A stretch of DNA of 64,000 nt from an uncultured Alphaproteobacteria bacterium (GTDB lineage: Bacteria > Pseudomonadota > Alphaproteobacteria > RF32 > CAG-239): NCBI GenBank assembly GCA_934277435.1, contig CAKQUE010000001.1, forward strand, positions 65,652-129,651. Direction: 5' to 3'. Positions 53,736-55,763 of the stretch are shown piece after piece. Position 1 is the first letter of the stretch, and every line of letters begins with the position of its first letter. The position numbers were made by a program, and so were the translations under genes. Under the pieces are notes generated by a model. The model ran no database searches and was not told where the DNA came from. It saw nothing but the letters and a program-made list of their open reading frames with translations.

Positions 53736-54227
53736 ATGATAAAAAAAACACTTCATTATATTTGCGCGTTAGTTGCCGGCGCAGGGTGGAGCGCTTTGTT
53801 GCTATTACTCTATAGATTAATATTTTTCTATGGATATCAAATAGATATTTTGTCACCGCTGACTTATGCCAGTATCCGTAATTATTGGAATAACGGCGGC
53901 GTACTAAAATCCGGCGACATTGTTATGATTTTGGGTATTTTTACTTATTTGCCGATTGTTATTTTGGGCTGGTGGTTTTTGTGGAAATATCATTATATAA
54001 ACCTGATTATGACGCCGCTTATAAAAATTTCTAATCTGGGATTGGATAAATACAGCGGCGGAATGCCGGAAGTAAATATTAAAAACTTAAAAATAGAGGA
54101 GAAAAAAACACTGGAACAACTGGTGCAGGAACGTATAGAGCTGGAAAATAAGAAAAATCCGCAAAAAACAGATTCTGCGGAATTCCGTAAAGAAATTGTT
54201 GAAAAGATAGAAAATGAAATCAATTAA
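53736..54227 (+). CDS. Small polytopic membrane protein, paralogous to the N-terminal domain of the next gene
   Basis: RBS AAGAGG. Two or three TM helices. Conserved Trp-rich pattern (ILGWWFLWKYHY..IMTPLIKISN) shared with the 54282 product. Confidence 0.5.
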   Translation: MIKKTLHYICALVAGAGWSALLLLLYRLIFFYGYQIDILSPLTYASIRNYWNNGGVLKSGDIVMILGIFTYLPIVILGWWFLWKYHYINLIMTPLIKISNLGLDKYSGGMPEVNIKNLKIEEKKTLEQLVQERIELENKKNPQKTDSAEFRKEIVEKIENEIN

Positions 54228-54281
54228 CACTCTCTTTATAAATTGGGTTTATACTGAAAAGAAAAATATGGAGTAAAAAGG

Positions 54282-55763
54282 GTGAAATCCTTAATTGTCT
54301 TTGCAAGAATAATCATAGTCGGCTGCCTGTGGAGCATAGTCTTCATTGAAGGTATCCGTGTGATTATGCTTTGCAATTGGCATTTTGATATCTTTTGGCC
54401 AGACCATTGGCGACAAGCCTACGCCCTATGGAAAGCAGGCTGGGTTATCCGCGCACCAAAAGAGTGGGCGTTTGTTATTATCCTTGCCACATTTTTCCCA
54501 ATGCTTATCACCGGCTGGTGGACTTTGTGTATGGTTGCATGGGAAAACATTATCTATGATATTATAATGTCGCCGGTTTTGCTCTATAGACGTTTGATTA
54601 AAACTCCGATTAACGTTATTAAAACCAACAATAAATACGGCGTGGTAAAGAAAAAATCATACAAACAAATCAGACCGGCTGGCGTCGGCGGTTTCAGAAT
54701 GCCGATTTCTGATTATTCTGACAATAAATCTGCAGCTCCGGTTACTGCCGGTGTAAATATCAGCAATACCTCGGCAATGCCTCAAACCAGACATTTGTCA
54801 GCAACTGCGGCTACCGCGCCAAAACCATTGAAAAAAACAGATATTCCATCTACTATCGATCATGCTTTGTTCAAATTTGACGATGACGACGATGACTTTG
54901 ATTTGGACATAGATTCTTTTGAAAAAGCCGATATTTTGAAAAAGAAAGAACCGGTAAAACCTAAAAAAGAGATATTTAACGACGACGATGACGATAATAC
55001 GCCGGCAAAGCCTCGCAAAAACAAAAAAGATAACAACGAATCAACAAAACGTTCAAGTAAAAAAACTGTTTTTGACGACGATGATGAAGATGAAGATGAA
55101 GATTATCAACCGCGTAATAACCGCCGTAACAACAAAAATAATGACGATAGTCGACAAAATAATAAGCAAAATAACCGCGGCAAAGACAACCGCAATGACA
55201 AATTATCACGCGATAACAAAACAAACAATGATGATACAGCTGAAACCGAAAACAGTTCAGCTCATCGCAGTCCGGTTTATGATACTTTACAGCAAAAAGG
55301 ATATGACGTTATCGCCGGTGTCAAAGTTAACAACACTGTAATAGATTTTGTCGGTGTTTCCGATGCGGAAATATGTTTGTGCCTCGTTGATAAAGAAAGC
55401 GGCGATTGGCTGGCAGATGAAGAGCTGTTTAACGGGGAAGAACCTTTGTGGTTTTCGGAAAACAGCCATCGTATATCGCCGGTGCGCAAATTAGATGTTG
55501 CACGAAATGTTATTCGTGATAAACTTGCCGAAGAAAACTTTGAGCAGGAAGTCAAATCTTTTGTGGTTGTACAGATGGCTAATATTATCAATGCCGATGA
55601 TATGTTTGAAATTTGGAACAATATGGATATTGACGTAACACGCATTAACCGCGGCGCCCCAAAAGAAATGCGCTTGTTCTCTAAAACATTGGACGACGCA
55701 GACCGACAAATCGACCGTAAAGAACTAGATCGTCTGCGCAAGGTTCTAAAAAATATTAAATAG
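54282..55763 (+). CDS. Membrane protein with a paralogous N-terminal TM domain, a long poly-Asp/Asn/Lys/Arg low-complexity linker, and a C-terminal globular (possibly NERD/nuclease-like) domain
   Basis: GTG start at 54282. N-terminus similar to the 53736 product (ITGWWTLCMVAWEN..IMSPVLLYRRLIKTPIN). DDDDDD, DDDDD and DDDDEDEDED runs with NNRRNNKNN-type basic stretches. The C-terminal segment GYDVIAGVKVNNTVIDFVGVSDAEICLCLVDKESGDW resembles NERD-type domains. Confidence 0.5.
   Translation: MKSLIVFARIIIVGCLWSIVFIEGIRVIMLCNWHFDIFWPDHWRQAYALWKAGWVIRAPKEWAFVIILATFFPMLITGWWTLCMVAWENIIYDIIMSPVLLYRRLIKTPINVIKTNNKYGVVKKKSYKQIRPAGVGGFRMPISDYSDNKSAAPVTAGVNISNTSAMPQTRHLSATAATAPKPLKKTDIPSTIDHALFKFDDDDDDFDLDIDSFEKADILKKKEPVKPKKEIFNDDDDDNTPAKPRKNKKDNNESTKRSSKKTVFDDDDEDEDEDYQPRNNRRNNKNNDDSRQNNKQNNRGKDNRNDKLSRDNKTNNDDTAETENSSAHRSPVYDTLQQKGYDVIAGVKVNNTVIDFVGVSDAEICLCLVDKESGDWLADEELFNGEEPLWFSENSHRISPVRKLDVARNVIRDKLAEENFEQEVKSFVVVQMANIINADDMFEIWNNMDIDVTRINRGAPKEMRLFSKTLDDADRQIDRKELDRLRKVLKNIK

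Follow-up and report, generated by a model that had tools for sequence, protein, structure and literature searches.

Two adjacent genes, g163 and g493, in a 64,000-nt stretch of the chromosome of an uncultured alphaproteobacterium of the clade RF32/CAG-239 (contig CAKQUE010000001.1, positions 65,652 to 129,651; hereafter, the window) encode predicted inner-membrane proteins and directly precede a gene for a VirD4/TraG-family type IV coupling protein (T4CP). We propose, with slightly less than even confidence, that g163 and g493 are clade-specific inner-membrane accessory or adaptor subunits of this vertically inherited VirD4-family ATPase. In a genome scan with one genome per species, relatives were found in 381 genome stretches, of which the best 80 were inspected. 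All of these best 80 loci came from uncultured gut, rumen or faecal assemblies and most were labelled Alphaproteobacteria; five were labelled otherwise (Bacteroidaceae, [Ruminococcus] gnavus, Eubacteriales or Lachnospiraceae). g163, g493 and the T4CP gene were contiguous and on one strand in 82 of 82 clade loci, across g493 identities of 38 to 94%, and the alignment gap between g493 and the T4CP gene had a median of 17.5 nt. The full block, rpoH(-)-rluD(-)-g348-g667-g163-g493-T4CP, was present in most of these loci, with g348 upstream of the module in 65. A large protein database yielded 878 matches to g493, all unnamed or "hypothetical" and from metagenome-assembled genomes of Alphaproteobacteria. 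This operon conservation is the sole evidence for the putative g493-T4CP complex. Gene order, paralogy, predicted topology, disorder, fold, loss of the catalytic motif, acidity and vertical inheritance are shown by the analysis, and from these we infer that the proteins associate physically with the T4CP, that they act as adaptors, and what their partners or substrates might be.

The neighbouring ATPase had originally been described only as a member of a DNA-translocase family, and domain searches identified it as a VirD4/TraG-type coupling protein. Its sequence matched PF02534 (E = 1.2e-56), PF12696 (1.7e-22) and PF10412 (4.1e-17), contained Walker A (APPGTGKTAG) and Walker B (LFILDEFPQ) motifs, and had two predicted N-terminal transmembrane (TM) segments and an acidic C-terminal tail. 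The NCBIfam VirD4/TraG matches were all far below the equivalog cut-offs, and a phmmer search of the PDB retrieved no solved T4CP at E <= 1e-3. The T4CPs of VirB-type conjugation systems share the same three Pfam families, the two N-terminal TM segments and the Walker motifs, and the nearest plasmid relatives of the window protein, at 33% identity, are found at the end of canonical virB2-virB11-virD4 clusters on Sphingomonadales plasmids. The window gene differs from these in that it is chromosomal, vertically inherited, conserved to the degree of RpoH, and preceded by g348-g667-g163-g493 rather than by virB8-B11. VirD4-family coupling ATPases are normally encoded on mobile elements and function within a complete type IV secretion apparatus. 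Over 54 fully syntenic genomes, the median identity to the window was 77% for RpoH, 76% for the T4CP, 67% for RluD, 53% for g348, 47% for g493 and 36% for g163; the value for g667 was 29% (32 genomes, with partial coverage). Identity followed that of RpoH for both the T4CP and g493 (Spearman 0.85 and 0.84, respectively), a pattern that indicates co-inheritance. Because the identity of the T4CP is similar to that of RpoH and tracks it, the gene is, as judged from these comparisons, a slowly evolving and vertically inherited core gene, which is unusual for its family. This inheritance extends over hundreds of alphaproteobacterial species from gut and rumen. A mobile-element origin of g493 was rejected, since no homolog was found in plasmids, phages or IMG/VR viral contigs. 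The flanks consist of housekeeping genes, and the window is entirely core chromosome. A search of the literature on RF32/CAG-239 and type IV secretion returned nothing relevant.

Both reading frames of the original prediction were recovered on the + strand, together with every peptide quoted from them, and all five genes of the block share this strand (Table 1). The g348 open reading frame (ORF) spans 50613/50652-51659, with ATG 50652 as the probable start in preference to TTG 50613 on the basis of ortholog alignment (ortholog start MANNNDIL). Similarly, the T4CP ORF could begin at 55766 or 55772, and ATG 55772 was favoured by the alignment of orthologs, which begin MAFKERGEEW. g493 starts at GTG 54282, with the sequence GGAG 11 nt upstream. 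The spacing is tight: 2 nt separate the g667 stop from the g163 start, and g493 is followed by the T4CP gene after 8 nt, or after 2 nt if the earlier start is used. No + strand terminator with a stem comparable to that of the hairpin at 58004..58031 was found in the block ahead of it; four weaker + strand matches, with 5-bp stems, fall inside the coding sequences of g163, g493 and the T4CP and were set aside, and overall, terminator-like sites were as numerous as expected from shuffled sequence. We propose that g667, g163, g493 and the T4CP gene are co-transcribed as a predicted operon, with g348 immediately upstream.

Table 1. Coordinates of the block genes, the putative signals and the segments of g493 within the window.
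Feature	Position	Strand	Description
g348	50652..51659	+	Soluble, function unassigned; first gene of the syntenic block
Promoter-like site	51671-51699		Precedes g667
g667	51730..53733	+	Fast-evolving Lys/Glu-rich soluble protein
g163	53736..54227	+	Small inner-membrane protein with two TM segments; paralogous to the N-terminal module of g493
g493	54282..55763	+	Two-TM module, then disordered charged linker, then acidic NERD-like domain
g493 residues 1-106	54282..54599	+	Trp-rich membrane module; helices 2-31, 40-51, 59-84, 87-106
g493 residues 109-327	54606..55262	+	Polyampholyte linker; poly-Asp runs, Asn/Lys/Arg runs
g493 residues 117-145	54630..54716	+	Basic juxtamembrane motif, NNKYGVVK(K/R)KSYKQIRPAG...PISDY
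g493 residues 192-215	54855..54926	+	Short linear motif IDHALFKFDDDDDDFDLDIDSFEK, acidic/aromatic, within the linker
g493 residues 331-493	55272..55760	+	Acidic C-terminal domain; PD-(D/E)xK restriction-endonuclease-like, NERD-like fold
g493 residues 374-401	55401..55484	+	Signature after beta-3, GDWLADEE.F....P.WFSE..H..SPV
T4CP gene	55772..57988	+	VirD4/TraG-family type IV coupling protein, 740-aa ORF
Intrinsic-terminator-like hairpin	58004..58031	+	10-bp stem and T run, 16 nt past the T4CP stop; predicted to close the operon

The N-terminal modules of g163 and g493 had been thought to be paralogous, and three comparisons placed their similarity well above chance. BLASTP aligned them over 90 aa at 24% identity (E = 8e-10), hhalign related the two family alignments over 98 columns with a probability of 95.9% (E = 5e-9), and the Smith-Waterman score was 106, compared with 33 +/- 6 for 2000 shuffles in which the hydrophobic block structure was kept (z about 12; none of the shuffles reached 106). 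Two TM segments were predicted in each protein, with hydrophobic segments at residues 6-31 and 58-83 of g163 and at 1-31 and 61-85 of g493. A full-length AlphaFold model of g493, built on 30 homologs, assigned the helices of the module predicted local distance difference test scores (pLDDT) of 70-80, and the alignment columns MLCNW.FD.FWP.HW, KEWA and PML.TGWWTL were invariant in this region. g163 carries an invariant charged helix that is predicted to be cytoplasmic, VNIKNLKIEEKKT.EQLVQERIE.ENKK (residues 113-140, nt 54072-54155). The topology of g493 was predicted as N-in/C-in, and because a stretch with a net charge of +9 follows immediately after TM2, the linker and the C-terminal domain are predicted to be cytoplasmic; they would then share this compartment with the motor domain of the T4CP. 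g163 and g493 would each enter the membrane through a Trp-rich hairpin of two helices, paralogous between the two proteins, that leaves both termini on the cytoplasmic side.

From the membrane, g493 would extend a disordered polyampholyte tether about 220 residues long. The intrinsic disorder first suggested for this part of the protein was supported by the full-length model, in which residues 109-327 had pLDDT values below 50 and no secondary structure, and by conservation of the composition. Among 117 homologs, the linker that follows the acidic motif ranged from 61 to 131 aa, with about 27% acidic and 26% basic residues and a net charge near zero. The charged runs are thus conserved in composition and not in length or sequence, and since length varies while composition is kept, we regard the linker as a polyampholyte tether under selection for its composition. 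Short in-frame codon repeats underlie the poly-Asp/Glu and Asn/Arg runs (GACGATGAC, GATGAA and a 12-nt unit, at 54879-54896, 55083-55103 and 55107-55133), which could explain the frequent changes of linker length among orthologs.

Two short segments depart from this variability. In the basic juxtamembrane motif, S126, Y127, R131 and P132 of g493 (the SY..RP core) were retained in distant relatives. The acidic/aromatic motif was invariant across a 30-sequence alignment (56-82% identity), and its pattern was present in 100 of 120 homologs. Conserved islands within disordered regions are the usual mark of docking motifs. A docking platform had been offered as the alternative function of the charged linker, and with two near-invariant motifs amid variable sequence it appears to fit the data better. 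In the proposed mechanism, the tether would bear two docking motifs, the basic juxtamembrane KKKSYKQIRP and the acidic/aromatic FDDDDDDFDLDIDSFEK.

The C-terminal domain had been described as globular and about 180 aa in length; it is globular, but its size is about 163 aa (residues 331-493). A model of residues 325-493, based on 20 homologs, had a pLDDT of 81 and a predicted template-modelling score of 0.81. The order of its elements was alpha-beta-beta-beta-(insertion)-alpha-beta-alpha-beta, and the alpha-beta-beta-beta-alpha-beta core of restriction-endonuclease-like folds is present in the model. The guess of a NERD or PD-(D/E)xK-like fold was correct in this respect, and it is joined by a marginal Pfam signal: NERD (PF08378) matched residues 335-430 over profile positions 12-110 of 111 with 17.8 bits (E = 0.0049), below the gathering threshold of 22.1 bits. 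At E <= 0.1, the NERD profile was matched by 25 of the 30 close relatives and by 7 of the 13 diverse ones (best E, 6.5e-6), and a precomputed PF08378 match was present on some homologs. As judged from these profile matches, the relationship between g493 and NERD is marginal yet real. Searches of PDB chains with the sequence of g493 and its family profiles returned nothing beyond low-complexity or chance matches.

Conservation within the domain was counted over 140 family members, drawn from representatives at 50% identity, and residues were mapped to strands by the DSSP strand limits on the model, not by residue-level superposition. With this mapping, the (D/E)xK motif was not conserved in the 140 members; the beta-3 positions 365, 367 and 369 were occupied by V, L, C or I, and the positions that follow were Lys in 17% (371) and Glu in 40% (372). 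D355 was conserved in 77% of the members, with G, N or P at this position in some others, and nowhere in the domain was a Lys, Arg or His conserved. The canonical catalytic arrangement, an Asp on beta-2 followed by (D/E)xK on beta-3, is accordingly absent from the family. The domain is also strongly acidic: its net charge was -9 in the g493 of the window, with a median of -13 among 141 members, 99% of which were negative; on the level of composition, this is not the basic or neutral surface that nucleic acid would favour. The best-conserved feature is instead a family signature, WxAxE...PxWFSE...SP...N...W, most of which lies in the insertion after beta-3. The residues concerned are W376 (93%), A378 (96%), E380 (98%), P388 (97%), W390 (98%), F391 (94%), S392 (91%), E393 (88%), S399 (100%) and P400 (99%), together with N437 (99%), D/E440 (95%) and W445 (96%). 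Outside this set, D370 was conserved in 80%. The stretch of residues 374-401, which holds most of the top-conserved positions, had pLDDT values of 53-63, and such low confidence would be as expected for a flexible binding loop. Compared with NERD proper, the g493 family therefore differs in its sub-threshold score, the loss of D...(D/E)xK, its acidity and the insertion WxAxE...PxWFSE...SP, which is specific to the family.

These data do not support the original proposal of a membrane-tethered domain that cleaves or binds nucleic acid. Because the domain is acidic, has no conserved basic residue and does not conserve (D/E)xK, it has, on this evidence, little to recommend it as a nuclease or as a binder of nucleic acid, and a binding module derived from a nuclease fold would be the more economical reading. 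An active membrane-tethered nuclease or nucleic-acid binder could still act on translocase DNA through a non-canonical acidic site composed of D355, D370, E380, E393 and D/E440, and the fold, the NERD profile signal and the conservation of E380, E393, D370 and D355 given above would suit such an enzyme, as would the presence of DNA-coupling ATPases in the T4CP family and the occurrence of the nearest plasmid relatives in conjugation clusters. We nevertheless consider it highly improbable, given the hydrophobic interior of beta-3 with Lys371 in few members, the substitutions of D355 and the unfavourable charge. Furthermore, searches of Pfam and NCBIfam revealed no relaxase or other recognisable DNA-processing gene in the operon, and stand-alone homologs of g493 occur with no translocase nearby. 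The window does contain bona fide PD-(D/E)xK nucleases, namely an AddA/AddB-type pair at 20484-26730 (-), which consists of a UvrD helicase with PDDEXK_1 followed by a second PDDEXK_1 protein.

The adaptor reading of g163 and g493 has a mechanistic precedent in the Legionella Dot/Icm type IVB system, where the membrane protein DotM (IcmP), which has a cytoplasmic domain, forms a coupling complex with the T4CP DotL (PMC5802825, PMC7280309) and recruits substrates through acidic motifs (PMC5802825). g493 resembles DotM in its predicted location in the inner membrane, with TM helices at the N-terminus and a domain in the cytoplasm, and the analogy is limited to this architecture and to the proposed partnership with a T4CP. 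The differences are considerable. The cytoplasmic domain of DotM is all-alpha and has no structural homologs (PMC5802825), whereas that of g493 has an alpha/beta restriction-endonuclease fold; the acidic motif lies within the membrane protein g493 itself; and the T4CP is VirD4-type (type IVA-like), in contrast to DotL. Pfam, NCBIfam and PDB sequence searches detected no similarity between g493 and DotM, and homology of the two was rejected on fold class. We thus postulate a role that would be functionally analogous to that of DotM next to DotL. The tether of g493 would end in an acidic domain that has kept the PD-(D/E)xK/NERD fold and lost the canonical catalytic residues. This domain would serve not as a nuclease but as a protein or ligand receptor, through the invariant W-x-A-x-E / P-x-W-F-S-E / S-P loop, and the degenerate NERD-like head may be a receptor for a basic partner. 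As a whole, g493 would be a flexible scaffold or adaptor by which partners are recruited to the membrane ATPase or regulated there.

Several observations weigh against this adaptor reading. First, no VirB or mating-pair formation (MPF) gene was found in the 64-kb window, and tblastn with the VirB2-B11 proteins of locus L084 against 1.48 Mb of sequence flanking 85 loci detected no VirB2-B11 homolog within 10 kb of the module. Second, the TM module of g163 and g493 is dissimilar to the TM domain of the T4CP, and a relationship of that domain to the hairpin was rejected (z of 0.5 and -1.2). Third, a single motif shared by g348 (EDDDFEKLL), g493 (DIDSFEK) and the T4CP tail (DDNFEVD) was considered and dropped, because Smith-Waterman scores were no better than those of shuffles (z of 0.7); the likeness of the three acidic motifs is no stronger than composition alone would give. 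Fourth, distant relatives of g493, at about 20% identity, combine a TM hairpin, an acidic or charged linker and the signature domain just as g493 does, and the six examined stand alone, with no T4CP, g163, g348 or g667 within 10 kb. Fifth, the signature domain also occurs in AAA+ and TPR-Roc-COR-TIR proteins (see below), which points to a more general role. Because the distant relatives stand alone, the ancestral role of the family probably need not have involved a T4CP. The "novel combination" of the original prediction holds to the extent that T4CP adjacency was found in one clade, but not beyond it, since distant relatives have no T4CP and a membrane-anchored partial NERD domain is already known from SmdA.

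SmdA of Staphylococcus aureus acts at the septum in cell division and morphology; it is anchored in the membrane by a TM segment, and its partial NERD domain, which is cytoplasmic, is missing several of the residues conserved in NERD (PMC9040797). The smdA gene belongs to the chromosomal core, and no nuclease activity is known for the protein (PMC9040797). g493 resembles SmdA, as compared by description, in its N-terminal TM anchor and its cytoplasmic degenerate NERD domain; SmdA differs in having one TM helix and a monocistronic gene, in belonging to Firmicutes, and in lacking the 220-aa charged disordered linker and the T4CP neighbour. This precedent suggests that g493 could be a housekeeping membrane tether like SmdA or ZipA, with a function in envelope, lipid or cell-division organisation, and that the T4CP adjacency is lineage-specific and at most loosely coupled. 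The contexts of the distant relatives agree with such a role, because they are single genes in core surroundings: in five of five loci of one subfamily (L085, L087, L088, L089 and L090), accB-accC lie directly downstream of the g493-like gene, which is located at about 10001-11300, or at 5110-6318 or 760-2001, and in L088 and L089 the g493-like gene is itself directly downstream of a TraT-family (PF05818) lipoprotein gene. The sixth distant relative, L086, has another context. Vertical inheritance of the family, with none of its members on plasmids or phages, and the core-chromosome setting of the window are also in keeping with a housekeeping tether. We consider this explanation, which is the main rival of the adaptor reading, somewhat unlikely, since the T4CP adjacency is strict and tightly spaced in all 82 clade loci, down to 38% identity, and the g163 paralog and the invariant acidic motif were gained specifically in this operon. 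Taken together, the comparisons indicate that the T4CP link is probably a gut-clade innovation that arose alongside the g163 paralog and the acidic motif.

Outside this architecture, the signature domain was found in the absence of the TM module at the N-terminus of CbbX/SpoVK-type AAA+ ATPases, where an acidic, Phe-rich (acidic/aromatic) linker usually follows, and inside TPR-Roc-COR-TIR proteins of about 1500 aa. Examples are P0235, P0237, P0247, P0229, P0246, P0258, P0183 and P0196; the eight fusion proteins that were scanned, a set without P0247, had no Pfam NERD match at E <= 0.01. The C-terminal domain defines an unannotated family with about 260 clusters at 50% identity, and the recurrence in different proteins suggests that the signature domain is an autonomous and reusable module. 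In one further protein, P0338 (207 aa, on a 1.3-kb JGI contig), a NERD-like fragment was in frame with SepF/YlmF (PF04472); considering the length of the contig, this fusion was treated as a probable assembly chimera.

The same fusions raise the idea of a conflict or defence system, in which the NERD-derived domain would serve as the head of a sensor or effector, while invading DNA would be the target of the T4CP-like ATPase at the membrane. Apart from the N-terminal fusion to CbbX/SpoVK-type ATPases, this idea draws on the large TPR-Roc-COR-TIR proteins, in which PADLOC models are matched by the TIR (ThsB-like) and TPR parts. PADLOC gave no significant match for the five window proteins, only a marginal mad8 match of the T4CP (E = 0.0024) with no matched stretch. 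The locus is syntenic, flanked by housekeeping genes and as conserved in its T4CP as in RpoH, unlike patchy defence islands with fast turnover, and the catalytic motif is absent from the domain. A defence function is thus improbable.

Two more genes, g348 and g667, complete the block. The N-terminus of g348 is acidic and includes a conserved D.F..LL..FI motif; the C-terminal domain of this protein is well conserved (LQLA.ISYVEIL...NPA..API..KIKPR.FG), and its comparison with PDB chains gave no match beyond low-complexity or chance similarity. In g667, conservation is restricted to a short hydrophobic motif around EEDIISYMYREWFLASMSW, at residues of about 273-291. No family was found for g348, g667 or g163 in Pfam, NCBIfam or PADLOC. 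Downstream of the T4CP gene, a trio at 58096-59304 (+) encodes an 86-aa protein, an extracytoplasmic function (ECF) sigma factor (Sigma70_r2/r4_2) and an LTXXQ (CpxP/Spy-like) protein; it resembles an envelope-stress module and has this position in the closest relatives only. Elsewhere in the window, four ORFs had no Pfam family at E <= 1e-3: 8858-10867 (+, 669 aa), 403-1122 (-, 239 aa), 40797-41774 (+, 325 aa) and 19109-19756 (-, 215 aa).

Membrane-anchored degenerate NERD proteins and T4CP-associated membrane adaptors are both precedented. Three aspects of the present system appear to be undescribed so far: the domain family, which is set apart by its signature, acidic character and fusions; the pairing of this domain with a paralogous small membrane protein; and the fixed operon with a core VirD4 homolog that is conserved like RpoH and has no neighbouring channel genes. 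A bolder extension of the adaptor reading, which we judge unlikely, is that, throughout a large clade of uncultured gut Alphaproteobacteria, a VirD4-family ATPase has been domesticated as a vertically inherited housekeeping machine that operates without a conjugative or type IV secretion channel and with the four partners g348, g667, g163 and g493, and that the acidic NERD-derived domain is a new protein-binding module, which AAA+ and TPR-Roc-COR-TIR proteins also employ as the head of a sensor or adaptor. With its sharp signature and its recurrence in AAA+ and NLR-like proteins, the C-terminal domain merits a family definition of its own. If the partnership of g493 with the T4CP is real, it would represent a new kind of coupling complex, in which a long disordered tether carries the adaptor's nuclease fold with its degenerate catalytic site, and it would offer an entry into the biology of an abundant uncultured gut lineage, be it through secretion directed at the host or at neighbouring cells or through a repurposed translocase.

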